Shown in pieces: positions 6,162 through 43,926 of a stretch of DNA of 47,574 bases. The notes under the pieces are model-generated. The model was not told the origin of the DNA, ran no database searches, and saw nothing but the letters and a program-made list of their open reading frames with translations. The stretch lies in sequence record OR896835.1, one strand, 5' to 3'. The stretch's first letter is position 1, and each line of letters opens with the position of its first letter. A program made the position numbers and the translations under genes. The stretch is from Escherichia phage RobRod40.

Positions 6162-7595
6162 ATGGCTAGTGAATTAAGAGCAGTGACTGCTGGTACTGCC
6201 CATGCCCTAAAGCAAAAAATCACCGAATACATAGCTGAAGGTTGGCAGCCTTATGGCAGGATCCTTAATGCTGGGGCGACAAGTGTTGGCATTATAATGG
6301 CGAAAGGTACTGAGGCAAACATTACTGATGTTGATGTTATTACCGCAGATTCAAGGGCTTCCTTAGTTTCTAAGATTAACTCATCCATAGAAAATGGATT
6401 TGAGATGTTCGGCGAGCAGGAAGTGAACGCAAGTAGATTTATCGCATTCATGACTAAAGGGTCTCAAGGTTCATCTGGTGGCGGTGGTGAACCTGGACCA
6501 ATTGGACCAAAGGGTGATAAGGGAGATAAGGGTGACAAGGGAGACGTTGGTGAGCGCGGACCCGCTGGCGTAGCTGGTTCTGCTGGCGCTACAGGCCCGA
6601 CAGGCCCTCAGGGTTTAACTGGACCTGCTGGCGAAAAAGGTGATACTGGAGAGCAAGGCCCAATTGGCCCTACTGGTCCCACTGGCCCAAAGGGTGATAC
6701 TGGCGCAACTGGCCCCGCCGGACCGCAAGGCCCAAGAGGATTGCAAGGTGAACAGGGGGTTCCGGGCGAGGTTGGACCGGCTGGCTTGACATTCCAGGGC
6801 GCATGGGATTCTGCCTCCACATATGTGAAGGATGACACTGTAGTTTATGATGGATCTACTTGGTTTGCTCCAGATGCTGTAGCCTCAGGTTTGGTTCCAG
6901 GTGTTGCTCCTGAGTGGATCCTTTTAGCTGCACAAGGCGCAAGGGGAGAGGATGGTCCGCAGGGTCCGGTTGGCCCTCAGGGTTTACAGGGTGCCACTGG
7001 CCCGGCAGGTCCTACTGGCGCTACTGGCGCTACAGGTCCGCAAGGTCCCAGAGGTATACAAGGTCAAACCGGCCCGGCAGGTCCAGCAGGTCCTCAGGGT
7101 GAGGCTGGTCCTCAGGGTATTCAGGGACCACAGGGTATCGCTGGACCTCAGGGATTAACTGGCCCTCAGGGTCCAAAGGGTGATAAAGGTGATGCTCCTT
7201 ACACATTGTTTAACTCGCAGAACGTTACATCAACATACATTGAAATCCCCATTCCGCAAGTAACCAACACTGTACTTAGGGTTAGGCTTTCAGGTGCCAA
7301 CTTTGAATATAGCGTTTTAAGTAAAGGTGGCGCTAATAGATATGTTGACTTTTACACATTCATCCCGTCATTAACCAGCTCAACGGGTAACATCTATACC
7401 GGAGGAACCACCTTAACACCAACTGGTAGTCTTTTTTTGGGTAATTCCCCTGTGGCTCTCGGGTTAAGGGAGTTGACAATAACACTTAAGGAATGGGGTG
7501 ACAGGACACTAACTACAATAAAGGCGATACATCACGGCAGATCAGGTGACACAACAAGACCCTTGCAGATAACTATGTTTAGTAATAAGTATTAA
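6162..7595 (+). CDS. collagen-like repeat fibre protein
   Basis: Two long Gly-X-Y repeat tracts interrupted by a [13 protein letters not shown] tail-fibre-like segment; non-collagenous N- and C-terminal domains. Confidence 0.8.
6513..6548 (+). repeat. tandem 9-bp coding repeats (GGTGATAAG-like x4) in collagen-like gene
   Basis: ggtgataag ggagataag ggtgacaag ggagacgtt encoding [11 protein letters not shown]. Confidence 0.7.
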
Positions 7596-22847: not shown

Positions 22848-23068
22848 TACATTGAGCAGTCGTGAGACTTGAAGTTCTTATCTGATACATAGTGGAATGA
22901 GAAGGGGTATCCAGCACGCAATAGCATCTCATTACCGCGCATCTGAGAGCCAAAAACATAAACCGAGTACTCTGCTCCGCCTGATTCATAAATCGCCGTA
23001 CATGTGCGCTCTGGCATCGTAGAGCAACCAATCAGGAGCAATGCCGCAATTGCTATAATCTTTTTCAT
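22847..23068 (-). CDS. small lipoprotein (candidate superinfection-exclusion protein)
   Basis: MKKIIAIAALLLIGC signal peptide with lipobox; GGAGG RBS 8 nt upstream of ATG at 23068; ~73 aa, adjacent to tail fibre genes. Confidence 0.5.
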   Translation of the reverse strand: MKKIIAIAALLLIGCSTMPERTCTAIYESGGAEYSVYVFGSQMRGNEMLLRAGYPFSFHYVSDKNFKSHDCSM

Positions 23069-23069
23069 A

Positions 23070-23174
23070 TTAGAATCCTCCAAAGTTACTAGCCAGCAGA
23101 AGAACCCAAACGAAGAAGCCAGTTACGGCAGTGCCAGCGACCAGGGCAATTGAGTTGTTGATTAAGTTAGTCAT
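23070..23174 (-). CDS. small predicted membrane peptide
   Basis: 34-aa ORF with hydrophobic segment ALVAGTAVTGFFVWVLLLA; AAGGAA RBS; alternative longer start at 23300 lacks RBS. Confidence 0.3.
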   Translation of the reverse strand: MTNLINNSIALVAGTAVTGFFVWVLLLASNFGGF

Positions 23175-23310
23175 CTTGCATTCCTTGTTAAGTTGCTTAG
23201 TTTCGATGTGGTAATAATACAGCCGTCTCTGCGGAATGTCTTTAGCTATTCGTGCTATTGCATACGCGTAACCGATGTAACTCGATGTATACAATCTCAT
23301 CCGCGGAAAA

Positions 23311-23340
23311 TGATATACGCCAAGTTACGCAAATTTACGC
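23311..23340. repeat. iteron-like direct repeats (3 x TACGC at 10-bp period)
   Basis: gatataCGC / aagtTACGC / atttTACGC spaced one helical turn apart in AT-rich intergenic region. Confidence 0.5.
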
Positions 23341-23344
23341 ATTG

Positions 23345-23405
23345 GTTACATTAAAATATCTATATATATCAACCTTTTACTATTATTATTATTATTATAT
23401 ATATT
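23345..23405. repeat. AT-rich module GTTACATTAAAA...(TAT)6(AT)n, copy 1
   Basis: Homologous to 41661-41728; contains (TAT)6 microsatellite at 23381-23398. Confidence 0.6.
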
Positions 23406-23520
23406 ACTGTGTATATCATGTAACTACTTCTATAGAGTGTTCCGGTTATAATTTTAATATCATGTGGATTTATACAGTATCCAACAACCAGCATACCAAT
23501 GCACCCTCAGCAATAAATGA

Positions 23521-23552
23521 TATACACGATATACACGCTAGTTACATTGAGA
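23521..23552. repeat. second iteron cluster (2 x GATATACACG + CTAGTTACATT)
   Basis: tatacacgatatacacgctagttacattgag repeats the core of the first module. Confidence 0.45.
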
Positions 23553-23653
23553 TATGGCTGGTCTGGAGTGCCAAAAAACGTAACTAGCGCCAATGTATAC
23601 ACGTAATTACAAAGATTAACGCGTAAACTTGATTCAACGATTGGCAAAACCAA

Positions 23654-23681
23654 TTGGACTGGCTACGGTTCCGAGTATAAA
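23654..23681 (+). promoter_or_regulatory. candidate sigma70-type promoter (TTGGAC-16-TATAAA)
   Basis: Upstream of 23721 early operon; followed by CCTCATCGAAAGCAAAC leader; overlapped by inverted repeat ATTGGcaaaaCCAAT. Confidence 0.4.
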
Positions 23682-23720
23682 GTTACCTCATCGAAAGCAA
23701 ACAACCAGAGAGATGCACAA

Positions 23721-23915
23721 ATGACCTACTACATTATCAAAGAGAAAAACAATGCACTGTTCGGTGACTGCTATTTTGGTGGCCCTGCCGGATACACCAC
23801 GGATAAGAACGAAGCAGACAGATTCGAGACCAAAGGAGAAGCCCGTGATGTACTGACCGGTTACTTCACTGAGGAAGATTTGAATTCTGTTAAAGTAGTT
23901 AAGGTCAAGGGGTGA
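23721..23915 (+). CDS. hypothetical protein (first gene of early operon)
   Basis: 64-aa ORF downstream of AT-rich intergenic region and sigma70-like promoter. Confidence 0.5.
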   Translation: MTYYIIKEKNNALFGDCYFGGPAGYTTDKNEADRFETKGEARDVLTGYFTEEDLNSVKVVKVKG

Positions 23916-23918
23916 GTT

Positions 23919-24884
23919 ATGAGCTTTAAAGTTTTTACGCGAGAGGAGCTAAGCAACGAGGCTTACCACGCTGAAACCGACCACATCTCAGGCTCCTCAC
24001 TTGTCGAGATTATCCAGGGATCCCCAGCTAAGTGGAAGTTTAAACAGCGCAACAATGATAGCAAGGCTCTGAAGTTTGGAACGCTGAGTCACACGTACAT
24101 CCTCGAAGGTGACATGTTTGACAAAGAATACCTTAGAGCGACAGACCTTGACTCTATTGAAGGGTTAATTACAAGCCAAGCTGGATTATCGGCAGCGCTT
24201 AAAAAAGTTGGTGTGGCTGACACGTCAGGGAAGGGCTATAGCGAGCTTGTAGAGATGATGTATCGCTCTGGTGAGGATTGGGATGTTAAATGGCTAATTG
24301 AGCAGCAGGAGAGCGCCCAAGCGCTTGTAGAGGGCAAGGAGCTAGTTAGCGCATCAGACTACGACAAGGTGGTGGCGATGCGTGAAGTTCTCTGCAACAT
24401 TCCGGCGTATAATGCAATCGTGAATAGCGAAACAGCACAAAAGGAGTTATCAATCTTTGGTGAGATTCTTGGTGTCGGCGTGAAGATTCGAATTGACCAC
24501 GTTGATGTTGTTGATGGTGTAGTTCGGGTGACAGATTACAAAACGACCGCAGACGCAAGCCCGGAAGGATTCGGTAAATCGGCATTCTCGCACGGATACC
24601 TTGCAAAAATGGCCCTTCAGAGAGATCTGTTTGTGAAGGCATTTAACGAGAAGCGCAAGGTTGTCGTGGGATTGCTAGCGCAGGAGAAGGTAGAGCCATA
24701 TCTCCCAATGCTTTACACCCTAACCGACGAGCAGCTAAGAATTGGCCGACTTCAGTATCTTGAAGCGCTGGCTACGTACAAGAAGTGCAAGGAGCTAGAT
24801 ATCTGGCCGGGGTACTCTAATGGCATCACAGAGCAAGAGCTATTAGTTCCTGAGTGGGCGTTGAAACAGTATAAAGAAATCTAA
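23919..24884 (+). CDS. putative PD-(D/E)XK recombination exonuclease
   Basis: Motifs IRIDHVD and VTDYKTT (D...D/E.K) and C-terminal Q..Y; sits immediately upstream of Erf-like gene. Confidence 0.55.
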   Translation: MSFKVFTREELSNEAYHAETDHISGSSLVEIIQGSPAKWKFKQRNNDSKALKFGTLSHTYILEGDMFDKEYLRATDLDSIEGLITSQAGLSAALKKVGVADTSGKGYSELVEMMYRSGEDWDVKWLIEQQESAQALVEGKELVSASDYDKVVAMREVLCNIPAYNAIVNSETAQKELSIFGEILGVGVKIRIDHVDVVDGVVRVTDYKTTADASPEGFGKSAFSHGYLAKMALQRDLFVKAFNEKRKVVVGLLAQEKVEPYLPMLYTLTDEQLRIGRLQYLEALATYKKCKELDIWPGYSNGITEQELLVPEWALKQYKEI

Positions 24885-24928
24885 ATAGCACGAATTGCTA
24901 AAGACAAGATCAAAAGGTGGGGTATGAT
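24885..24928 (+). promoter_or_regulatory. conserved promoter-like module (ATAGCAC-gaa-TTGCTAAA, 22 bp, TATGAT)
   Basis: Palindrome GGGGTAtgatTACCCC spans the -10-like hexamer; precedes erf. Confidence 0.6.
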
Positions 24929-28442: not shown

Positions 28443-28465
28443 TGTGTAAATTCTCCATTTGTAAA

Positions 28466-28483
28466 ATAGCACGAATTGCTAAA
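28466..28483 (+). promoter_or_regulatory. motif copy ATAGCAC-gaa-TTGCTAAA without canonical downstream hexamer
   Basis: Lies in leader/upstream region of minus-strand tailspike gene; an extended -10 TGcTACAAT is present on the minus strand at 28488-28496. Confidence 0.4.
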
Positions 28484-28507
28484 GTGGATTGTAGCATCTT
28501 TCGGGTA

Positions 28508-28530
28508 TAAAAAAACCTCCCGAAGGAGGT
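28508..28530 (-). terminator. rho-independent terminator (minus strand, after primase-like gene)
   Basis: CCTCC-cgaa-GGAGG hairpin with A-run on + strand (T-run on minus). Confidence 0.7.
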
Positions 28531-29453
28531 TAGTCTAGTAATTCACTTGCCTTGTATATTCGCTTTCTTATGCCTGACTTGAAAAAATTATCATCATTTG
28601 GTATTACAACATCAAGATTACGATCGTCAGCAACGGCAAGTAAATCAAAAGCGTGGCGAGTACAAGCGATGCGTAACTTGTAGTTTCTAAGCGCGTAAGC
28701 AACCATTTCCATGTTGTAGCAGGAGTGGCAAACAAGTACGCAGCGGTTGCCAGTAGCAAGATGAGCGCGAATACCATCAATCCAATTATCGACCAGATAA
28801 GCGTACTCATCATCCTTAAATGAACCAATAACAGAAACAGATTGGCGAGTATAATCTTTTGCAGCATAACTAACATTCCCCTCTTCATTGATAAACATTA
28901 CATTGCACATTTCTTCTGATATACCGTCACTATAAGCCATAAAGCACGGTACTGCGTGGATTAGTTCTCCTGACTTTGCCCTGCCAACATCAAAACCGAA
29001 CTCACTATAAATACCCTCGTATGTACTGAGCGGCGTTGATTCTACTCTTTCCGTCCTTTCCATTATCTCTAAGCATCTTTCGTGGTCAATCTGAGCGCCC
29101 ATTTTGTAGATCTGAGTTCTTGATGCTTGCTTGTTTGCTTTAACTATAACCTCAATTGGTGTTAAGTTCAGCCAGTCACCAAGCAAATTTACTGAATCGG
29201 CGAAGGACGATCCAGTGCACTTCATGACCCATCCTATACCGGAGTCACTTCCGCATTTCGAACAAACTGCCGCGCCATTTCCTTTTTCACTGCCTATTTC
29301 GTCGGTAAATCTGAATCTGTCAGTGCCAAAGCAGTATGGGCATGGTCCGTGCTTCTTACTTAGGTGCCTATCATTCCAACCAAGCTCCTTTGCATAAAAT
29401 GATTTCCACAATCCGGCCATCTTAGGTATAACTTCATTCTTATCGTAACTCAT
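28530..29453 (-). CDS. putative DNA primase (zinc-finger containing)
   Basis: CPYCFG...CSKCG zinc-binding motif near N-terminus; position in replication block. Confidence 0.5.
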   Translation of the reverse strand: MSYDKNEVIPKMAGLWKSFYAKELGWNDRHLSKKHGPCPYCFGTDRFRFTDEIGSEKGNGAAVCSKCGSDSGIGWVMKCTGSSFADSVNLLGDWLNLTPIEVIVKANKQASRTQIYKMGAQIDHERCLEIMERTERVESTPLSTYEGIYSEFGFDVGRAKSGELIHAVPCFMAYSDGISEEMCNVMFINEEGNVSYAAKDYTRQSVSVIGSFKDDEYAYLVDNWIDGIRAHLATGNRCVLVCHSCYNMEMVAYALRNYKLRIACTRHAFDLLAVADDRNLDVVIPNDDNFFKSGIRKRIYKASELLD

Positions 29454-29929
29454 TTGCTTAACCCGTGATTTTCGTGAAAGTTGTATTTTCTCTCTGCTTC
29501 AATTCTTACTTTATACGCCTGCTCTGGAGTATCGAAGTTCCCAAGGTGTAGCTGCTTACCGTCAACCTTGATGTGAGCCTTAAATTTTCCGTGATTTAGC
29601 TTTGCCACTCCACAATAACCAGTTGTTGATAAAACGCTAAGCTTGCAATTTCTTGAGTTACCTTGATTTGTTGTTACTCTTAGGTTTTCTATTCTGTTAT
29701 CTAATTTGTTATGGTTTATATGATCAATGTAGTCGCCATTTTGAAGTTCTCCATTAAACATCTCCCACACAACTCTATGTACATAAGTCCTAAAGCCATT
29801 AATAGACACTTTGTAATAGCCAGATGTAGATAGTGAGTTGCACTCATCGCCAACCTTAACACGTCTTGCAGTGCTAATCTTCCAATGCAATTTGCCATCT
29901 ACATAGTAAAAATAATCATGCCAGTTCAT
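29450..29929 (-). CDS. HNH homing endonuclease (paralog 3)
   Basis: MNWHDYFYYVDGKL, HRVVWEMFNG, IDHINHNKLDNRIENLR motifs; GGAGAG RBS. Confidence 0.85.
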   Translation of the reverse strand: MNWHDYFYYVDGKLHWKISTARRVKVGDECNSLSTSGYYKVSINGFRTYVHRVVWEMFNGELQNGDYIDHINHNKLDNRIENLRVTTNQGNSRNCKLSVLSTTGYCGVAKLNHGKFKAHIKVDGKQLHLGNFDTPEQAYKVRIEAERKYNFHENHGLSK

Positions 29930-29960: not shown

Positions 29961-30004
29961 ATTATGGCACATCCAATTACTTACTCTTTAGCTTTTCGTG
30001 CTGC
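29961..30004 (-). promoter_or_regulatory. conserved promoter-like module, variant (CAGCAC-gaa-AAGCTAAA, 22 bp, CATAAT) on minus strand
   Basis: Overlaps 3' end of regulator gene; palindrome GGATGTgccataatcgGTACATCC spans -10; precedes HNH paralog 3. Confidence 0.5.
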
Positions 30005-30454
30005 TTCGTTAGCGGCCTTAATCTTTCGCCATGATCGACACTCTGGCTTGGTGGCTAGTTCAGCTTCAGTAACCACACGCAGCATGTGACGCTTTTTGCA
30101 CCGAAGTGTCAGCGGTTTTCCGTTACCATCGAATTGCAGGTCTGGTCGGCAGAATGTTGCGCGAAAGCCTTCTCCATTTCGCTTGTAGTAGTTGTGCGAT
30201 AGCTGGGCACCACGCGCAGAAATCATACCGCGCTTAAACCATTCTTCTACAGCCTGCGGTGTTACCTTTAGCTGCTTTGCGATATTCGCCTTTGTGCCGA
30301 AGAAATCAAGAACTATCTCTAGTCGAGCACGTAATCCAGCCCTTACCTCATCTTTCAAAACGTAGTAGCCTGAAGGTCGTTTGCGTTGCTTCTTATCTTG
30401 TGTGCGGACCGTTCCGTTATTACCGTTAGTCGTTCGCTTGTCAACTGAATTCAT
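29981..30454 (-). CDS. putative HTH DNA-binding regulator
   Basis: Candidate helix-turn-helix TKANIAKQLKVTPQAVEEWFKRG; basic N- and C-termini; GAGGTG RBS; divergent from helicase operon. Confidence 0.5.
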   Translation of the reverse strand: MNSVDKRTTNGNNGTVRTQDKKQRKRPSGYYVLKDEVRAGLRARLEIVLDFFGTKANIAKQLKVTPQAVEEWFKRGMISARGAQLSHNYYKRNGEGFRATFCRPDLQFDGNGKPLTLRCKKRHMLRVVTEAELATKPECRSWRKIKAANEAARKAKE

Positions 30455-30555: not shown

Positions 30556-32550
30556 ATGTTGCCTATCGAGAAGCTGGTTGCCAACTTTGATAAAGAAAGA
30601 ATTAAACAGATTCAGAAAGATTACCAGTTTGGCGAGATAACCCCTTACGAGTTCCAGTGCGTTACATTTGATGCAATTGGAAAGGCTATTGGCAAGTATG
30701 AGGCACCATTTATCGCAGACCTTTCCGTATCGGCTGGTAAGACAATCATTCTCGCCATGATTGGAAAGCGCATGGAGCAATTAGGATTGCCTTATATGGT
30801 TCTTTCTCGCCAGTCAGAGATAATAAGCCAGAACTCAGAAGAACTTCGAAACTTCGGAATCCGCAACAGCGTCTATTGCGCTGGCCTTAACGTTAAATCA
30901 GTTTATTACCCAACCATAGTTGCCAGTGAGGGCACGGCAGCTAACGGCTTGTTTAAGGGGCTTGGTGACTATGTCCCTGCCGTTATCGCTATCGATGAAT
31001 GTCACATGCTTGATGCTATGGATATCGTGGAAGCCGAAGAGAATGAAGAAACATTTGAGCAAATGAGCACAAAAAAAGGAGAGGTGGTCTTTAAAGATGG
31101 CGTTAATACCGGACTTCTTGGCACGGGCCGCGCACAGTACACGCTGATAATTACCGAGATGAAACGCCGTTGTCGTGAGAAGTATGGTCGTGAGCTTCGT
31201 ATATTCGGCCTTACTGGTAGCCCTTATCGAAACAATGACCATATTGTCGTTAGCAATCCAAACATCCGTGGATTCTGGCGCAAAACAGTTATTCAGGTGC
31301 CAACAAATTACCTTGTTGATTTGGGGTTCGTGGTACCAACAGTTTACGGCGAGGTTGGTGATTTAGGTTATGACCTTAGTGAATTTGCGCCAGACGGTAG
31401 CGATGGTGTGAAAGACTTCAGTAAGAAAGAAATGGATGCGATGCAGGAAAAGATTCATCAAAACCAGTCCATGACGCAAAAGATTATGCAGTTCGCAGCA
31501 AAGTTTATGGAGTCTCGCAACGCTGCACTTGTGACATGCTCTGGAAAGCGCCACTGCGAGGAAGCGGCGGCAGCGCTTCCTGAGGGTGCAACCTGGGCTA
31601 TAGTAACTGACTCAACTGGTGAGAAAAAGCGTCGTGAGATTCTTTCTGACGCAGCTGAGGGTAAGTATAAATTCATATTTCAGATTGGCTGCCTAACAAC
31701 CGGAGTTAACGTCCCGCCGTGGGATACGTCAATAATTCTTCGCAAGGTTGGTAGCATCACGTTACTGATTCAGCTTTTGGGGCGAGGAATGCGAATCCTT
31801 AAGAAGAAGCATAAGGAAATGGGAATGGTTAAGGATGATCACGTGGTGCTGGACTTCGCTGGTACTCTTGATGACATGGCGGAATTGTACTTTGACCCAA
31901 TCATAGAGGAAGTGCAGGACCAGAAATTTAAGTCTTCACGCAAAGGCGGCGATGAGCCAAGAATATGTCCAGCCTGTAGTTACGAGAACTCTCCTTTTGC
32001 TCGTCGTTGCAATAACGTAATTGATGGGAAGCGTTGTGAGCATTTTTTTACATTTCGCTTATGTGAAGATATAGAGGACCCGCAGACAAAAGTTACTATT
32101 AAGAAAGGTTGTGGTGAGAAGAATGATATTGCCGCTAAAAACTGCCGGTGCTGCGGAGAAATGCTTATTGACCCTAACGCAAAGTTGTCTGGAAAGATGT
32201 ATAGACAAGGGGATTGGTTGAGAGTTTACGGATTCAGTATTGGGTTAACTAAAAACCAAACCGGAATCGTTGCTCGCTATGAAATCATGGCTCACAGCGG
32301 AGACAGGTTTGTTGCTTACGAAACTTTCTTTCCAGAGAGTGACCATCGAGTTTGCTCTGTGAAGTGGAAGGCGTTTTGCCAAACTCATATCGCTAACAAA
32401 ACAGAAGCATTTCGCATCGGAAGACTTCGAAACGCTAAGATGATTATGACCAATGCAAGCCAATTCCGCGAGCCTATGCGAGTGACGCACAGAAAAAACC
32501 AGAAAGGTCAGGATATTATCGCAAATAAATCTTTTACTATGGAGGATTGA
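30556..32550 (+). CDS. putative SF2 DNA helicase (DExH-type)
   Basis: Walker A-like SVSAGKT and Walker B DECH; C-terminal Cys clusters suggesting zinc ribbons. Confidence 0.65.
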   Translation: MLPIEKLVANFDKERIKQIQKDYQFGEITPYEFQCVTFDAIGKAIGKYEAPFIADLSVSAGKTIILAMIGKRMEQLGLPYMVLSRQSEIISQNSEELRNFGIRNSVYCAGLNVKSVYYPTIVASEGTAANGLFKGLGDYVPAVIAIDECHMLDAMDIVEAEENEETFEQMSTKKGEVVFKDGVNTGLLGTGRAQYTLIITEMKRRCREKYGRELRIFGLTGSPYRNNDHIVVSNPNIRGFWRKTVIQVPTNYLVDLGFVVPTVYGEVGDLGYDLSEFAPDGSDGVKDFSKKEMDAMQEKIHQNQSMTQKIMQFAAKFMESRNAALVTCSGKRHCEEAAAALPEGATWAIVTDSTGEKKRREILSDAAEGKYKFIFQIGCLTTGVNVPPWDTSIILRKVGSITLLIQLLGRGMRILKKKHKEMGMVKDDHVVLDFAGTLDDMAELYFDPIIEEVQDQKFKSSRKGGDEPRICPACSYENSPFARRCNNVIDGKRCEHFFTFRLCEDIEDPQTKVTIKKGCGEKNDIAAKNCRCCGEMLIDPNAKLSGKMYRQGDWLRVYGFSIGLTKNQTGIVARYEIMAHSGDRFVAYETFFPESDHRVCSVKWKAFCQTHIANKTEAFRIGRLRNAKMIMTNASQFREPMRVTHRKNQKGQDIIANKSFTMED

Positions 32551-32551
32551 T

Positions 32552-32971
32552 ATGAAAATTACAGATAAGGTTGATTACATTGAGTTTTACCCAGGTCCTG
32601 TTAAGTCATGCCCTAAAGAGGATGACGAACAAATCTTTTGCTCTGATTGGGTTAAGTATAACTACCCAGAGATGGTATTTTTCCACTGCGTGAATGAGGG
32701 TAAGAAAACCATTGGACAAGCAAGAAAGGACCAGGCTAAAGGATTGCTTAAAGGGGTTTCGGACTGCTTATTCCTGATACCTGAATCTCTACGAGGCAAA
32801 TACCCTTTTGGAGCCATAGAGCTAAAGAGGGCCGGGAAGACCCAAGCTAGCCCAGTCAGTGGCGAGCAGAAGTCCTTCCTTAAAAGCGTGAGAGAGTCAG
32901 GTGGTTTTGCCGCAGTGGCCTACGGTCGTGAAGGTTTTCTGGCAGCATTCAAAGAAATGATTTCAAAATAG
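32552..32971 (+). CDS. VRR-NUC domain nuclease
   Basis: FHCVNEG, GVSDCLFL, GAIELKRAGK and Q..FL...G pattern matching the VRR-NUC PD-(D/E)XK layout. Confidence 0.7.
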   Translation: MKITDKVDYIEFYPGPVKSCPKEDDEQIFCSDWVKYNYPEMVFFHCVNEGKKTIGQARKDQAKGLLKGVSDCLFLIPESLRGKYPFGAIELKRAGKTQASPVSGEQKSFLKSVRESGGFAAVAYGREGFLAAFKEMISK

Positions 32972-33011
32972 CACGAATTGCTAAATACGAATCGGTGAGG
33001 TGGTGTATTAT
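32968..33011 (+). promoter_or_regulatory. conserved promoter-like module (ATAGCAC-gaa-TTGCTAAA, 22 bp, TATTAT)
   Basis: Palindrome GAGGTGgtgtattatCACCTC spans -10; leader CATCGAAACGAAAC. Confidence 0.6.
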
Positions 33012-36581: not shown

Positions 36582-37067
36582 ATGAAGCAGAAGCTAGTGG
36601 TTGGTGCTGCGACCGCTGCGGCAATATACATCGCAGCGCCGCTTATTGAGCTTGTTGAAGGCGTAGAGAATAAGCCATACATGGATATTGCTGGAATCCC
36701 TACAGTTTGCGCCGGCGTTACTGGCCCTGACGTGGTTTGGGGCAAGAATTACAGCAATAGAGAGTGCCGAAAACTTCTAGAGAAGCACATTCAGATTCAT
36801 GGCAAGTATGTTGAGGATGCAGTTACCTACCCAATAGAACCAGAGACAAGGGCGGCGTTAATCAGCTTTAGCTACAATGTTGGCGGCTCAGCGATGAGGA
36901 AATCTACTGCTGTTAAGTTAATTAACCAGGGTAAGATTGAGCAAGGCTGTAAGGCTTTGGGTCTCTGGAATAAAGCTACCATTAACGGCAAGAAGGTTGT
37001 GGTTAAGGGGTTGGTGAATCGCAGGAATGAGGAGATTAAGTTATGCTTAAGTGGATTGCAGCGTTAG
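36582..37067 (+). CDS. SAR-endolysin (GH24 lysozyme with N-terminal signal-anchor-release domain)
   Basis: Weakly hydrophobic Gly/Ala-rich N-terminal helix VVGAATAAAIYIAAPLI followed by catalytic E-x8-D-x5-T triad (EGVENKPYMDIAGIPT). Confidence 0.8.
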   Translation: MKQKLVVGAATAAAIYIAAPLIELVEGVENKPYMDIAGIPTVCAGVTGPDVVWGKNYSNRECRKLLEKHIQIHGKYVEDAVTYPIEPETRAALISFSYNVGGSAMRKSTAVKLINQGKIEQGCKALGLWNKATINGKKVVVKGLVNRRNEEIKLCLSGLQR

Positions 37068-37785: not shown

Positions 37786-39369
37786 TCACCCCAACAGTCG
37801 TGGATTAATGTAAACTTTATCACCAATCAGGCACGTATAGTTTTTCTCATCAAGCATTGGCAGTAAGTGATCTTTAATCTTTGTCATTACACCAGCCTGA
37901 GCCTCAAACGGCTTAACCTTTCGAGCCGCCTCATACAATGAACGAATACCAACTACACCTTTCCCGTTCTTGCCTTGCTTGATCAGTATATCAACCAGCT
38001 TGCTCATCTCAGCATGGTCGCCAGCGTGACCAGCAGCGTTAGCTGATGACAGATAAGTCTTACTCAGTTCCTGGAACATAATTACAGCCTCTTGCATGGT
38101 GTCGAGCTCGATCTCTCTGGACTTCTGTGGACTACCGCCATTTGGGCTGAACCAGTTGCGCACAGTGTGAAGAACAGCTGCAATCCTGATGGCCTGCTTA
38201 TCGAACTTACCCAACGCGCCACGTAACATTGTGTGTGAATACTTCCCGCCATCTGCAAGGTGAGGCTCCATCTCCTGACGCGCACGGTTTAGGTATTTCA
38301 TCGCTGAGTTGCTCACTGTCAGCTTAACATCTTGCTCATTCATTATTTCATGAACTAAAAGGAAGTAATCTGCCTTCAGCCCGCTATTAATTGGTTCGTA
38401 TGTTGAGTTGCCATTCTCATCAACGAATACGCGCTCACCAAGGAATGATTTTTCACGAACCAAAAGGAAGCGTTCAGATACACCGATACCGCGCGCACCA
38501 GCATTCATGATGGCGTTGATTGTTTCATCCTGCGCAATTACAGAGATGCAACCCATAGCAACGAAACTCATGTTATTTTCTGCGTTGGCACGCGCAATGG
38601 ATACGCTACCAGCGTCCCACGCTTTCAGTACAAGTTCGCTGTTCGTTTTCTTCGAGCCATCACCGTAAGTCATGCCAAGAAGTGAGTTGACGCTCGTTGC
38701 CTCATCCGAAATTACCGCAAAGTTGCCCTGGCGGTTGTTTATTCGCGCAAGACCTTCAGGCGTGGTATCTGATACTGGAAATACGATATCACACAGCTTC
38801 TCGAGTTTCTCCTCTAACTCCTCTTTCTCCTCAAAAAGAGAAGCCATCTCAGAGGGTGACTTTTCCTGCTTCATCTCTTTGGACAATGCAGATAGTTTGG
38901 CCATGATCTTTTTGCGCTCACGCTTTCGCACCTCATTCAGTCGCTCATTCTCAGAAATCATCGGAGCAAGGGCTAGTGAGTTGATGGCCGATTTACCCGT
39001 AGATGGTGGCTGACTGGTTACGACATATAGCGACGTTGGCTGCTGTGTGCCGTGATACTCGACAGTAAAGCGCCCAAGCATGGCAGCGGAAATACACCCC
39101 AGGAAGTGCATATAAGCTGAAGATTCGGGAAATTGAACAGAGCGAGCAATGTTAGCTGACAGTTTGCCAACAACATCAACATCATTACCGAGTGAGATTA
39201 CGGGATACTTGTCATTAGCAGCATCAATCTCTACTGGCGCTTTCCAGAATGATTGAGACTGTCGATAGCCATTGGCATTAATAGCCACTCGCAGAGGTGG
39301 AAGGTTGTCTGCGGCAGCAATTGCCATAACCTGCTCAACAGATAGTTTATCTTCGTTGAAATCAAACAT
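37786..39369 (-). CDS. P-loop containing protein (long paralog of 42539..43063)
   Basis: 527 aa; Walker A-like QPPSTGKS; N-terminal ~40 aa and C-terminal ~65 aa align with the 174-aa + strand protein; extended -10 promoter and GGAGAG RBS. Confidence 0.6.
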   Translation of the reverse strand: MFDFNEDKLSVEQVMAIAAADNLPPLRVAINANGYRQSQSFWKAPVEIDAANDKYPVISLGNDVDVVGKLSANIARSVQFPESSAYMHFLGCISAAMLGRFTVEYHGTQQPTSLYVVTSQPPSTGKSAINSLALAPMISENERLNEVRKRERKKIMAKLSALSKEMKQEKSPSEMASLFEEKEELEEKLEKLCDIVFPVSDTTPEGLARINNRQGNFAVISDEATSVNSLLGMTYGDGSKKTNSELVLKAWDAGSVSIARANAENNMSFVAMGCISVIAQDETINAIMNAGARGIGVSERFLLVREKSFLGERVFVDENGNSTYEPINSGLKADYFLLVHEIMNEQDVKLTVSNSAMKYLNRARQEMEPHLADGGKYSHTMLRGALGKFDKQAIRIAAVLHTVRNWFSPNGGSPQKSREIELDTMQEAVIMFQELSKTYLSSANAAGHAGDHAEMSKLVDILIKQGKNGKGVVGIRSLYEAARKVKPFEAQAGVMTKIKDHLLPMLDEKNYTCLIGDKVYINPRLLG

Positions 39370-39830: not shown

Positions 39831-39874
39831 AATATACAGGAAAAGCCCCGAAGGGCTTTAGCAATTAGTGCTAT
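39831..39874 (-). promoter_or_regulatory. conserved promoter-like module on minus strand (ATAGCAC-taa-TTGCTAAA, 22 bp, TATATT)
   Basis: Terminator hairpin sits inside the 22-bp spacer; leader CATCTCATCGAAACGAAG. Confidence 0.6.
39840..39858 (-). terminator. terminator-like hairpin embedded in a promoter-module spacer (minus strand)
   Basis: Minus-strand AGCCC-ttcg-GGGCT then TTTT, lying between the TTGCTAAA motif and the -10-like hexamer. Confidence 0.5.
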
Positions 39875-39875
39875 T

Positions 39876-40550
39876 TTAGCTGTTGGCGAGGTATACAGCA
39901 CGGGCGAACCCGCGCGGGGTTAGAGAGCGCAACTGCTTAGTCTTAGCAGACTTCCCGCCGAGGTACTTCCATCCCCAAAAGAAACCGATGTTAATCGGCC
40001 CGTGATTCTTCACTGGCTCAACGAATCCGTTGCCATGCCAGATGCAAGTTTTCTTGGTGTAGCCGTCGTATTTTGGCATTTTTTCGTGGTATGGCAGATC
40101 ATGAGCATTCATTAGCCCGCCGTACTCATACGGGTTGAAATAGAAATCAGGCTTACGCCACATGCTTGACAGCTTGCCTACCGGGTTTTCAACCATCCAT
40201 GGAGCCTGGAAGTAATTACCAACCTCTTCGACGAGCTTAGCATTATCCAGTGCATACGCCAGTTCATCTTCCCCGCGCTCATGCTGTGATCCTGACTGAG
40301 AGAACAGTGTGCAATCAGGAAATCCGATAACCATTTGCGCCGGAGGCAGGCCAAGTAATTCACACTTAGTGATGAAATCTTTGTCTATCCACATGTTGAT
40401 GTAGTGAATATTCTCATGCTGCATCTTGATTTGATATTCGCCATGATTACCAGAATCCGCGTTGAAACAGTAGACGGTGTGACCATTCTCAGCCCATGGC
40501 AGGCCAGCGATACCTGAACCATCAAACAGACAGTAAATTACCTTTTTCAT
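39876..40550 (-). CDS. putative compact DNA (cytosine-5) methyltransferase-like protein
   Basis: Motif I-like LFDGSGIAG, motif IV-like GFPDCTLFSQSG, motif VI-like ENPVG, C-terminal RSLTPRGFARA; unusually short at 224 aa. Confidence 0.4.
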   Translation of the reverse strand: MKKVIYCLFDGSGIAGLPWAENGHTVYCFNADSGNHGEYQIKMQHENIHYINMWIDKDFITKCELLGLPPAQMVIGFPDCTLFSQSGSQHERGEDELAYALDNAKLVEEVGNYFQAPWMVENPVGKLSSMWRKPDFYFNPYEYGGLMNAHDLPYHEKMPKYDGYTKKTCIWHGNGFVEPVKNHGPINIGFFWGWKYLGGKSAKTKQLRSLTPRGFARAVYLANS

Positions 40551-41304: not shown

Positions 41305-41345
41305 TTATTTTCTCCAGTTCTCTTCACTCATTTCGATGAGCTAAC

Positions 41346-41389
41346 TATATCCTCCCCGACTGATAATGTCTTTAACAAAAAGTGCTATT
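41346..41389 (-). promoter_or_regulatory. promoter-like module on minus strand (ATAGCAC-ttt-TTGTTAAA, ~22-23 bp, TATAGT-like)
   Basis: Leader TAGCTCATCGAAATGAG; adjacent to inverted-repeat operator array; precedes minus-strand operon. Confidence 0.5.
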
Positions 41390-41407
41390 CGTTGGATTTA
41401 CGTATTG

Positions 41408-41470
41408 TTGCAGATATTGCAATGATTCACATGATTATTGCACATAAAGCAATATTGCTTCAGATGCAAT
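41408..41470. promoter_or_regulatory. inverted-repeat operator-like array
   Basis: TTGCA-N5-TGCAA (41408-41422) and two abutting ATTGC-N7-GCAAT sites (41437-41453, 41454-41470) just upstream of minus-strand promoter module. Confidence 0.4.
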
Positions 41471-41630
41471 GATGTTTTTGATTGTTGCGAAAATTGAAAT
41501 GAAGTGGTGAGTGAGTGAATGAAAGATGGATGGACTACCATACAAGTTGATTTTTATTCTGGCTGAGCCATTTTCATGCTTACGCGTAAACGAAATAACT
41601 AGCTGTATGCCATTTGCGTCCGCGGGAAAT

Positions 41631-41660
41631 CGTATACGCATGATACGCAGCGATACGCAC
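41631..41660. repeat. iteron-like direct repeats (3 x ATACGC at ~10-bp period)
   Basis: cgtATACGCa / tgATACGCag / cgATACGCac. Confidence 0.5.
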
Positions 41661-41728
41661 TAGTTACATTAAAACATCCTTATATAACAACCATTTATCT
41701 ATATTATTATTATTATTATATATATATG
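41661..41728. repeat. AT-rich module CTAGTTACATTAAAAC...(TAT)6(AT)n, copy 2
   Basis: Homologous to 23345-23405; (TAT)6 at 41702-41719. Confidence 0.6.
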
Positions 41729-41947
41729 TATGCTATGTAAGCCATGTCATATGGTGAAGTTGATATATTTCTATGATTTATTCCTACACATGTAGGAATG
41801 AGACTACTTTGTAGGAATGAAAAGGCATATATAGGCATGAATCTCCAAAAAGTTGGCATACATGGCACACGCAGCCATTTACACCAGTCATGTCGAGCAC
41901 TATTCCCAAATAAACGTAGGCAATCGCCATTGATACACAAATTAACG

Positions 41948-41976
41948 TTGACTTACAGGTTAACCATCAATATAAT
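41948..41976 (+). promoter_or_regulatory. near-consensus sigma70-type promoter (TTGACT-17-TATAAT)
   Basis: Canonical hexamers and spacing upstream of 42015 operon; followed by ATCATCGAAACAACAAACGA leader. Confidence 0.6.
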
Positions 41977-42014
41977 GACAATCATCGAAACAACAAACGA
42001 AAAGAGGATATACA

Positions 42015-42539
42015 ATGAGCGTTAAAACATTGGGTGCAGTTATTCGATATATGATTGACCAGGCGATTGAGTCTGAAGATAAGTCATTCACAGTACGGCT
42101 TCGTGATATCGCAAGAGCGACAACGGGAATAAACCCAAAATCATTAAGTGATGATGAGATAGTTGAGTTCGAAAAGGTCAAGGGCCTTAAAAGTTCATAC
42201 ATTTATAATACAGCCTCCAGGGTTCAGCGATTGCAGGAACTAAACCTCAGGGCAAAATATGAGATGGTATTCGTCAATGAAGATGGCGAAATACAAAGTG
42301 GCTCTTCTGTTGTCGACGGGCTTGGTTACAGAGCAATGCGAATCTTCCTTGTTGAGGGTGCTGTGAAGCCAGTTTGCCGAGCAAGGGCCGACTCAGAGAA
42401 CGAGGCTATGGCGGTTGAAAGATTCAAGTCCAGGCTTCTTAAGCTTTCACCAAGCGTTGCCGGCCTGGAAGGTGATGAACTTAAGGGCGCTGTGGCAATG
42501 ATTAACGCCTATCAGGAAATGATTAAGGAGACCAAATAA
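42015..42539 (+). CDS. hypothetical protein (first gene of + operon beside iteron region)
   Basis: 174-aa ORF immediately downstream of near-consensus sigma70 promoter and AT-rich iteron module. Confidence 0.55.
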   Translation: MSVKTLGAVIRYMIDQAIESEDKSFTVRLRDIARATTGINPKSLSDDEIVEFEKVKGLKSSYIYNTASRVQRLQELNLRAKYEMVFVNEDGEIQSGSSVVDGLGYRAMRIFLVEGAVKPVCRARADSENEAMAVERFKSRLLKLSPSVAGLEGDELKGAVAMINAYQEMIKETK

Positions 42540-43063
42540 TGTTTGATTTTACCGAAGAGAGGCTGACAGATGAGCAGATTATGGGTATTGCGAAGCAGGA
42601 TGGGATTCCCCCGATACGGGTTGCAATCAATGCTAACGGGTATCGGCATGTTCAGCACCTCTGGGGTCAGCCTGATTCATCTGAAGTATACATAGATGAA
42701 GATCTTGGCGTTCTGATTAAGTTGCTCAGGAAAATGGCAAGGAACGGAAAGGGAGTATTGGGGGTGAGGTCTTTATACGAAACCGCGCGCAAGGTTAAGC
42801 CATTTGAGGGTCGCAATGGAATCATGGCGTGCATTAAGGATGAACTAATCCCCGCTCTAGAGGAAATGAATCTCGCTTGCCTCATTGGAGATAAGATTTA
42901 TGTCCACCCGGCTATCATTGATGAGTATTGGCAGCCTAACTTCAAAACTTACGAAGCTGAGCACGTTAGTAGACTACCATACCACTTACGGTACAGTGAG
43001 GAGGAGGTGGAGAGAACGATGGAGTTCTACCGGAAAGCTAAATCACTTCTGAACGGTGAATAG
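42539..43063 (+). CDS. short paralog of the 527-aa P-loop protein (lacks central domain)
   Basis: MFDFTEERLTDEQIMGIAKQDGIPPIRVAINANGYR and NGKGVLGVRSLYETARKVKPFEG segments match N- and C-terminal segments of 37786..39369. Confidence 0.6.
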   Translation: MFDFTEERLTDEQIMGIAKQDGIPPIRVAINANGYRHVQHLWGQPDSSEVYIDEDLGVLIKLLRKMARNGKGVLGVRSLYETARKVKPFEGRNGIMACIKDELIPALEEMNLACLIGDKIYVHPAIIDEYWQPNFKTYEAEHVSRLPYHLRYSEEEVERTMEFYRKAKSLLNGE

Positions 43064-43142: not shown

Positions 43143-43886
43143 ATGAACAGATATGAGCCACGCATCTATCAGACACTATCAGGCTATTTTTCAGCCGCAA
43201 TGAGACGCCACTACAATGGAACGTACATCACCTACGAATCGCATAAGCAGGAAATTGAGTATCTACAGGCGCGTTTAAAGGCGTTAGAATCGAAGCAAAA
43301 AGACTCGATTTCAATCTCTTCAATTATTGCCGAGCACGTAGATGATGCGATTCGTAAATCCATTGGCGAGGCTGTTCACCAGGCAATTGATGAGATGTTC
43401 AAGGCTGAGTACAAATACAATGGCGATCCGTGCCATAGCGCAGTTGACTCAATCCTGGATGAGCTGGCTGTCGCCCCTGGTAAAACAGTTAAGGATGACA
43501 CCTATAGCGTCGCCGATGGATTGACGAAGAACGGTAAATTCACTTTCGGTAGTAATTTCGGTGAAGGAAAGGAGTTTACAATGCCAGTAGGCGAAACCGA
43601 ATCAGAGCATGGTCGCAAGGTGGCTGTTTGTTACTACGTTGCAGGCAATGCAAACGCATTCATCAAAGGCTGTGAGTATGAGTATGAAGTTGATGAATGT
43701 GAACCTGGGTGTGAGCCTCGAATCATTCATATCGTTCAAGATGCCTTCGTTTCTGATTTAAAATGTGAGCAACGATGGGATGCAAGAAAAGTCGGTGAAT
43801 TCAGGGATGCAAACGGCAAACTTGGTGACGCATACGTCATCGTTAAGCCTGGCGGCGGAGTTGTAGCTCAATTTTATATCAAATAG
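43143..43886 (+). CDS. hypothetical protein
   Basis: 247-aa ORF with promoter-like module upstream; Cys pairs near C-terminus. Confidence 0.55.
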   Translation: MNRYEPRIYQTLSGYFSAAMRRHYNGTYITYESHKQEIEYLQARLKALESKQKDSISISSIIAEHVDDAIRKSIGEAVHQAIDEMFKAEYKYNGDPCHSAVDSILDELAVAPGKTVKDDTYSVADGLTKNGKFTFGSNFGEGKEFTMPVGETESEHGRKVAVCYYVAGNANAFIKGCEYEYEVDECEPGCEPRIIHIVQDAFVSDLKCEQRWDARKVGEFRDANGKLGDAYVIVKPGGGVVAQFYIK

Positions 43887-43926
43887 CACGTTTTGTTAAA
43901 AGGGGATTCATCCTGACCGGTATAAT
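43883..43926 (+). promoter_or_regulatory. conserved promoter-like module (ATAGCAC-gtt-TTGTTAAA, 22 bp, TATAAT)
   Basis: Palindrome GGGGATT...AATCCCC spans -10; stop TAG embedded. Confidence 0.6.

Follow-up and report, generated by a model that had tools for sequence, protein, structure and literature searches.

Paired repeat modules beside AT-rich tracts as candidate replication origins of T1-family phages

Where does DNA replication start in phages of the T1 family? The question is raised by two non-coding stretches in the DNA of Escherichia phage RobRod40 (sequence record OR896835.1), analysed here over its full 47,574 bp, the window. The window is a complete Rtp-like coliphage genome (Drexlerviridae, Braunvirinae), collinear in gene order with JulesPiccard and Rtp; the large terminase gene opens it at position 1 and the small terminase gene lies at its far end (46495-47001). 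Non-coding DNA forms two large stretches in it, intergenic region 1 (IGR1, 23175-23720), flanked by a small leftward membrane-protein gene that adjoins cor and by the rightward recE-erf-ssb operon, and intergenic region 2 (IGR2, 41305-42014), flanked by two divergent clusters of small early genes. The original prediction had placed a repeat module in two non-coding regions between divergent units; the divergent arrangement holds in the window, but the spans are those given here. After comparison across the family the two modules appear to be the best candidates for the replication origins of T1-family phages, and this explanation is the best supported one, though not proven.

All the repeat elements predicted earlier are present, at the same positions or a few bases off, and the same composite module does occur in both regions, but it is longer than had been described: about 190 bp, beginning at a TTACGCGTAA-type palindrome. 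The full conserved unit of IGR1, as delimited by the nhmmer envelope, spans 23255-23444 on the plus strand, upstream of the recE-erf-ssb operon; the IGR2 unit (41573-41761, plus strand) was recovered both by nhmmer (E 2.7e-41) and by blastn with the first copy. The IGR1 palindrome is imperfect (ATACGCGTAA, 23262-23271) and consists of two inverted WTACGC half-sites, with TAC-CGT invariant in 18 aligned copies, whereas inspection of the IGR2 module revealed a perfect TTACGCGTAA at 41580-41589. Four matches to TTACGCGTAA with at most one mismatch exist in the window, three of them inside IGR1 and IGR2. To the right of the palindrome lie four phased cores on the plus strand: in IGR1 ATACGC at 23315, TTACGC at 23325 and 23335, and TTACAT at 23346 (23315-23351; 10, 10 and 11 bp from start to start), detected by Tandem Repeats Finder with period 10 and 2.6 copies; in IGR2 ATACGC at 41634, 41643 and 41653, and TTACAT at 41664 (41634-41669; 9, 10 and 11 bp). 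Both copies hold at least three short direct repeats in helical phasing, the arrangement expected of iterons.

An AT-rich tract of low duplex stability follows, a candidate DNA-unwinding element. It reads TATATATATC…(TAT)6(AT)n at 23358-23404 in IGR1, with the (TAT)6(AT)n part at 23381-23404 (Tandem Repeats Finder: period 3, 7.3 copies). Between the repeats and this part lies an IHF-consensus-like site, TATCAACCTTTTA (23367-23379, plus strand), which matches WATCAANNNNTTR exactly. The corresponding stretch of IGR2 (41685-41732) comprises an IHF-like site with one mismatch (TAACAACCATTTA) and then (TAT)6(AT)n at 41702-41727, likewise a candidate unwinding element of low stability. The place of the IHF-like site is kept in most copies, which is weak evidence for a binding site. 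Right of the AT tract stands a block kept in 18 copies (TGTATATCATGTAACTAC, 23410-23427, plus strand, in IGR1), and each module of the window has a TGTAT…TGTAA block.

The proposed alignment of the two regions, when run, confirmed that the modules are homologous: blastn aligns 23259-23404 with 41577-41725 at 79.3% identity over 150 nt (E 1.7e-25). Searched against the whole window, IGR1 retrieves the IGR2 copy (E 7e-20) and no third one. The pattern TACGC-N4-7-TACGC-N4-7-TACGC has exactly two matches in the window, the two modules, and none in 100 shuffles. The degenerate word WTACRC is enriched as well, 17 of its 108 genome copies lying inside the two regions, which make up 2.6% of the genome (p 4e-9); counts of 5-mers such as GTTAC proved too weak for use and were dropped. 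A search for the module sequence in plasmids and E. coli genomes gave no match.

Eighteen copies of the module (11 from IGR1, 7 from IGR2) could be aligned from Rtp-like and Rogue1-like phages. In both paralogues the conserved blocks come in the same order: the TTACGCGTAA-type palindrome, GTGTA, CCGCGG, three TACGC cores with TTACA, then ATATC-TATATA-(T/A)CAACC(T/A)TTTA (the block that contains the exact IHF-consensus match in IGR1), an invariant (ATT)4-5 followed by (AT)n, and finally TGTATATCATGTAAC. The cores are conserved and the intervening spacers vary, at a core spacing of 9-10, 10 and 11 bp; 15 of the 18 copies have all four cores and the other three retain the first three. The distance from palindrome to first core is 53 +/- 2 bp in 15/18 copies, and the ATT run begins at offset 127-130 in every one. 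The six other Rtp-like IGR2 loci that were checked all contain a copy as well. The (TAT)6 tracts had been thought prone to slippage, a view that the comparison between strains does not support: the tract has the same length in 17 of the 18 copies, with one extra ATT unit in IME542, and nearly all of the 60 listed database matches to the IGR1 module, from a total of 125 phage records, run across the query without an indel. A microsatellite held at fixed length does not behave as a slippage-prone tract.

The IGR1 module is the best-conserved stretch of its locus. Across 11 phages its identity is 0.89-0.98 apart from the variable spacers that separate the cores, where it drops to 0.82; for recE it is 0.70-0.83. 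Most of the 125 matching phage records are 93-97% identical to the module. Judged from these alignments, the module is under purifying selection that appears stronger than that on the neighbouring genes. On the left flank, with cor and the receptor-related genes, identity falls to 0.3-0.6, which marks a sharp mosaic boundary. The IGR2 copy is less well kept (0.54-0.81), and the best-conserved segment of IGR2 (0.81-0.93) lies outside the module, at 41380-41560.

The AT tracts stand out by their physical properties. Nearest-neighbour stability was profiled in 40-bp windows along the whole of seven genomes (the window, Rtp, JulesPiccard, MSK, T1, TLS and Klebsiella phage GH-K3), representing four lineages: Rtp-like, T1, TLS and GH-K3. 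The least stable segment of RobRod40 is the AT tract of IGR2 (start 41692, z 5.0) and the second least stable that of IGR1 (start 23361, z 4.7). Indeed, the two module tracts are the two least stable 40-bp windows in all seven genomes (z 4.0-5.4), the third-ranked site reaching z 3.1-3.8. The independent test case was GH-K3, a Webervirus with a RecE of 47% identity; its two tracts both reach z 5.1, and its third site z 3.8. Each module has, next to its repeats, the AT-rich and unusually unstable segment that characterizes the unwinding element of iteron-type origins.

The equivalent regions of T1, TLS and GH-K3, upstream of recE and in the early divergent region, also hold an AT-rich core with flanking short repeats, and within each of these genomes the two copies resemble each other. 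With a profile of the Rtp-like modules the top match in T1 is IGR2 (E 5e-4) and that in TLS is IGR1 (E 7e-4), with a collinear order of blocks; the core GTATAKCRTGT directly to the right of the AT tract recurs in both regions of T1 and in IGR2 of TLS. The repeat word itself is different in each lineage and common to both regions within each genome: where the Rtp-like window has WTACRC, T1 has TGTAACA (6/6 copies in the two regions, p 2.5e-10), TLS has TGTTCAC (4/8, p 2.1e-5) and GH-K3 has GGTAAGAT (8/8, p 9e-14), the last in either orientation about AT cores that share nearly the same sequence for ~90 nt. Such specificity for the individual replicon is typical of iterons. Since three of the lineages infect E. 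coli with different words, while the copies within a genome share theirs, the protein that reads them is most simply phage-encoded rather than a host protein. The setting of the module varies too: the genes on either side of IGR1 in TLS run in the same direction, and the IGR1 module of GH-K3 comes directly after a regulator-primase operon. These two settings indicate that the module is independent of divergent promoters and follows replication and recombination genes.

Conserved cores in helical phase, set at a constant spacing from the DNA that melts most easily in the genome, strong purifying selection, words shared within a lineage, and association with replication and recombination genes together match what is known of iteron-type origins. 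That the two modules form a pair of cis-acting replication origins, of the type in which iterons adjoin an unwinding element, has in our judgement about an even chance of being correct. The origin had been predicted before, and the phased repeats, the extreme low stability in seven genomes and the presence of a pair in every lineage examined all support the idea, whereas initiation itself is something we infer. A phage-encoded, lineage-specific DNA-binding protein would bind to the palindrome and to the four WTACRY cores, which are in helical phase; this protein could be the C-terminal domain of a DUF3987 helicase, for which a paralogue suggests a winged helix, or a Cro-like helix-turn-helix (HTH) protein. 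The complex would melt the adjoining (TAT)6(AT)n tract, possibly aided by an IHF-type bend, whereupon the phage helicase and primase would be loaded at the melted tract and the host polymerase would carry out elongation. The IGR1 copy would then probably be the main origin, and the IGR2 copy may be a second origin or an auxiliary site, adjoining the start of packaging yet distinct from it.

The leading candidate for the trans-acting reader is the DUF3987 helicase (37786-39369, minus strand), with which the window would encode a suitable protein. It belongs to a family with demonstrated 5'-3' helicase activity, and its C-terminal ~75 amino acids align to the part of a paralogue that is predicted as a winged helix; through the paralogue's model this domain appears to resemble the ORC/Cdc6 winged helix. 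The paralogue, a miniature version of 174 amino acids (42539-43063, plus strand), keeps the N-terminal ~45 amino acids and the C-terminal domain, modelled with the winged helix, without the ATPase core. Over their first ~58 nt the two genes are 79% complementary, as an inverted DNA repeat. The mini-paralogue is found in the window, JulesPiccard and MSK, survives as a 19-amino-acid remnant in Rtp and is absent from T1 and TLS, which makes it an accessory protein.

The alternative candidate is the Cro-like HTH protein (29981-30454, minus strand), which matches Pfam P22_Cro at E 3.8e-6, below the curated cut-off, and PHROG 2856, 'transcriptional regulator'. Its gene sits between those of the zinc-ribbon primase (28530-29453, minus strand), with an HNH endonuclease gene (29450-29929) directly beside it, and of the SNF2-type helicase (30556-32550). 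In GH-K3 an HTH homologue and the primase gene stand immediately upstream of the IGR1 module, and the HTH protein may bind the repeats of the module. Sequence searches of solved structures with the helicase and the HTH protein found nothing. The primase was set aside as a reader: between the window and Rtp it is only 57% identical, as against 94-97% for the neighbouring proteins, a sign of mosaic replacement of the gene, and the modules of the same two phages are 96% identical, which makes it an unlikely reader.

The packaging start of these phages lies close to one of the modules. The conserved segment 41380-41560 (plus strand) exists only in IGR2 and contains TTGCA/TGCAATGAT/GATTGTTGC repeats, GTGAGTGAGTG (41507-41517) and GGACTA|CCATAC (41532-41543). 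The first position of the T1 record falls within IGR2, with 1-2800 annotated as a terminal repeat, and the packaging site (pac) of T1 was placed in this untranslated region in the SU57 paper (PMC7718038). Position 1 of the TLS record is pac as assigned by restriction mapping (PMC11447400), and for MSK a PhageTerm analysis gave a single significant terminus at 36,862 (PMC8421802), which aligns to GGACTA|CCATAC at position ~41538 of the window. The mapped ends of T1, TLS and MSK all fall inside the island, ~40 to ~200 nt to the left of the IGR2 module. Similar GCAAT/TTGCA clusters occur at the same place in T1 and GH-K3. The island is a candidate for the pac site of the family, separate from the shared module. 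The modules themselves coincide with no first cut or genome end, and no end has been reported at IGR1.

Promoters are found at the edges of the two regions. Many genes are preceded, in their own direction of transcription, by an element ATAGCACnnnTTGnTAAA, after which come a -10 hexamer and the conserved leader (T)CATCGAAAC; examples are 2104-2128, 24880-24904, 28461-28485, 32963-32987 and 43880-43908, and on the minus strand 23235-23259, 39851-39875 and 41365-41389. It is the 21-nt direct repeat aaATAGCACnnnTTGnTAAAA reported for TLS, the only repeat family previously known from the intergenic DNA of Drexlerviridae (PMC11447400). Copies of this repeat mark the left edge of both regions (23235-23259 and 41365-41389), whereas the modules are another element, present twice per genome and unmentioned in the TLS paper (PMC11447400). 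Further edge promoters are a near-consensus sigma-70 promoter at 41948-41976 and a -10 hexamer with a conserved leader at 23676-23696. Scans for sigma-70 promoters inside the modules gave only 9/12 matches in the AT tracts, no commoner than in shuffles, and the -35-like hexamer there differs between the IGR1 and IGR2 copies.

Several observations weigh against the modules being origins. Protein binding, melting and initiation at the modules are deduced from sequence, and the genes for the primase, the helicase and the HTH protein are 5-14 kb away from the modules in the window; classic phage origins are often found within the initiator gene or next to it, an arrangement that is common, not obligatory. 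Neither region contains a DnaA box (TTWTNCACA) or a GATC site, unlike an origin of the oriC kind; their absence rules out an oriC-like, DnaA-dependent origin only. The exact matches to WATCAANNNNTTR in the window number four, about the chance expectation. Between divergent units, a palindrome with repeated half-sites could also be the operator of a transcriptional regulator. The IGR2 copy is only ~40 bp from a mapped packaging end, and a passage of the MSK paper has the ATATA repeats of T1 earlier treated as a pac feature (PMC8421802). The conservation of the IGR1 module, at a mosaic junction, could come partly from recombination. Finally, when T1, TLS and GH-K3 are compared, the small terminase subunit, the helicase, the HTH protein and the primase all show identities of ~41-73%, which single out none of them as the reader.

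How do other explanations compare? The modules might be operator arrays, on whose palindrome and half-sites the Cro-like HTH protein or another phage protein times or silences the divergent early and middle promoters, the AT tract being a promoter-rich or bendable spacer. Both regions split divergent units in the window and have promoters at their edges, the TTACGCGTAA palindrome suits a dimeric HTH protein of which the genome encodes a Cro-like example, and lineage-specific words fit any phage-encoded DNA-binding protein. Yet the module is 230-300 bp away from the rightward promoters, and the leftward promoter element is ~190 bp away in IGR2 and abuts the module in IGR1, so that the position of the module relative to promoters is not conserved; TLS retains the module in IGR1 without a divergent promoter pair, and the promoter-like matches within the modules are the weak ones noted above. 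Operators would also leave unexplained why the two least stable segments of seven genomes stand at a fixed distance from the repeats, and why the (ATT)n length is invariant. We consider this reading, akin to the regulatory hub of the original prediction, unlikely. The nearness of the packaging ends suggests a second one, in which the module is part of the pac recognition region, as a binding site for the terminase small subunit or a bending site, comparable to pacR of SPP1 or the IHF-flanked repeats of P1 pac, and the IGR1 copy is a secondary or vestigial pac. The position of the ends in three lineages, the earlier proposal for the ATATA repeats of T1 and the order of pac-like cluster and then module, kept in GH-K3, agree with it. 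However, the module is best conserved at IGR1, which has no known packaging start and lacks the TTGCA/GTGAGTGAGTG island, a single terminus is significant in MSK, and within IGR2 the island is better kept than the module, which suggests two separate elements. The packaging-related site of the original prediction is thus real in that a pac end maps to IGR2, but it sits in an island of its own. Of the two module copies the one distant from pac is the better conserved, which speaks against packaging as the role of the shared module; we regard such a role as quite improbable, although the IGR2 copy may contribute to pac function.

The module might also be a conserved linker for recombination at mosaic junctions, or a duplicated remnant that no longer has a function; either would account for the position of IGR1 at a sharp mosaic boundary, with a divergent left flank and a conserved module and recE side. 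Phage mosaic junctions often carry conserved linker sequences. Neutral DNA, however, would not hold an indel-free geometry and core-specific conservation in 18 copies, would not reappear with other repeat words in T1, TLS and GH-K3, and would not match the stability minimum in every genome; we hold a linker or remnant to be extremely unlikely. A more elaborate form of the origin reading is that the modules are one bipartite replication system, modelled on ori and crr of P4 or on plasmid handcuffing, in which the same helicase or winged-helix protein would bridge IGR1 and IGR2, initiation would be coupled to the packaging start and the mini-paralogue would act as a tuning competitor. If so, the first-packaged chromosome would carry a module copy in its terminal repeat. 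This extension by analogy is doubtful indeed.

Some further repeats accompany the modules. An extra iteron cluster had been predicted in IGR1 and is present at 23519-23548 (plus strand), as GATATACAC twice and CTAGTTACATT (Tandem Repeats Finder: period 9, 100% match). This second, partial cluster lacks an AT tract and matches the repeat part of the module weakly (nhmmer E 0.24). As a correction to the original prediction, the motif in IGR1 is TTGGTTACATT rather than CTAGTTACATT. Inverted sites facing the module, GTAACTAG, ATACACGTAA and TAACGCGTAA, lie on the minus strand at 23580-23626 (minus-strand nhmmer match 23631-23587, E 0.27). Directly to the right of the IGR2 module, at 41777-41820, there is an 11-pair hairpin (TTCCTACA/TGTAGGAA) that overlaps two direct GTAGGAATGA repeats; this segment is poorly conserved in relatives.

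A coding function of IGR1 was considered and rejected. Open reading frames (ORFs) of 76 and 111 amino acids over the region are not conserved, and the latter, which runs across the module, is unannotated in relatives. JulesPiccard (locus 2275-2622) and CEB_EC3a (locus 1722-2153) have annotated ORFs of 116-143 amino acids, in which the small gene upstream of recE is lengthened backwards to cover the right half of IGR1 (23481-23720). The frame of this long ORF has two stop codons in the window, so that the extension in the relatives is probably an over-annotation of non-coding DNA. An Rfam search of 23000-23900, a span that covers IGR1, gave no match up to E = 1, and the cumulative GC skew of the window follows the direction of transcription only, with no origin signal.

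A few observations concern the genome and its relatives more generally. Among the matches listed, the closest full-length IGR1 relative in the phage collection is record MG065688.1, 'Campylobacter phage A110b'; its sequence is that of an Rtp-like coliphage, and the Campylobacter host label is therefore probably wrong. Several further 'Campylobacter' records occur among the RecE matches. GATC is strongly under-represented in the window as a whole (72 sites against 170 +/- 11 in shuffles), and a DNA methyltransferase gene is present at 39876-40550. A 477-amino-acid ORF at 6162-7595 (plus strand) has long collagen-like Gly-X-Y repeats, with 9-nt and 18-nt periodic direct repeats of the pattern GGTCCxCAGGGT; JulesPiccard has only small ORFs at this site and no large one.

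Paired origins have a precedent in SPP1, where each origin has repeats beside an AT-rich segment. Like RobRod40, SPP1 is a virulent siphovirus that packages by the pac-type headful mechanism and has two distant origin copies, 32.1 kb apart (PMC3561973) as compared to 18.3 kb for the modules; both are bound by one phage-encoded origin-binding protein, according to a passage in a further paper (PMC3485210). There is no sequence or protein homology between the two systems: SPP1 uses G38P, the loader G39P and the DnaB-type helicase G40P, whereas the RobRod40 set comprises the DUF3987 helicase, the SNF2-type helicase, the zinc-ribbon primase and the Cro-like HTH protein. Moreover, oriL of SPP1 lies inside the initiator gene while both modules are intergenic, and origin function, demonstrated in SPP1, is putative for the modules.

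The origins of lambda and of the plasmids pSC101 and R6K (gamma) are built of phased direct repeats for a replicon-specific initiator beside an AT-rich region that melts, in the plasmids with an IHF site in between. The specificity of these repeats varies between related replicons, as does that of the module words between lineages. The iterons of lambda, however, are ~19 bp long and lie inside gene O, as opposed to intergenic ~6-bp cores with a period of 10-11 bp, and further differences are the two copies per genome, the absence of DnaA boxes and the weakly supported IHF-like site of the modules. In P4 two separated repeat regions, ori and crr, are needed, and both are read by the C-terminal DNA-binding domain of the primase-helicase; the origins of staphylococcal pathogenicity islands have short repeats around an AT-rich core and a helicase-type Rep whose specificity co-varies with the repeats. 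The similarity to these systems lies in the leading candidate reader, a helicase with a putative C-terminal winged helix. A difference to P4 is that primase and helicase are separate proteins in RobRod40, with the primase an unlikely reader.

The SU57 paper states that the origin was not found (PMC7718038), and the TLS paper that there are no iteron-like repeats anywhere in the genome (PMC11447400). In the accessible literature, outside which the T1 and Rtp genome papers lie, we found no mapping of a T1-family replication origin, and no usable transcript map or P4 iteron sequence. Elements of this kind are well known, and what appears to be new is their recognition across the family as a pair with one copy adjacent to pac. 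T1 belongs to the classic set of seven T phages, and the Drexlerviridae are common contaminants in laboratories and industry as well as candidates for phage therapy. The comparison yields two short and precise candidates per genome, in which both the cores and the unwinding tract are defined, and a rule for locating them in other genera, namely to look for the two 40-bp windows of lowest duplex stability, which a lineage-specific repeat word flanks. If the origin reading is true, the cis elements of T1-type replicons would be defined and the origin separated from the adjoining packaging site in the early intergenic region, which would aid the engineering or rebooting of T1-family phages.

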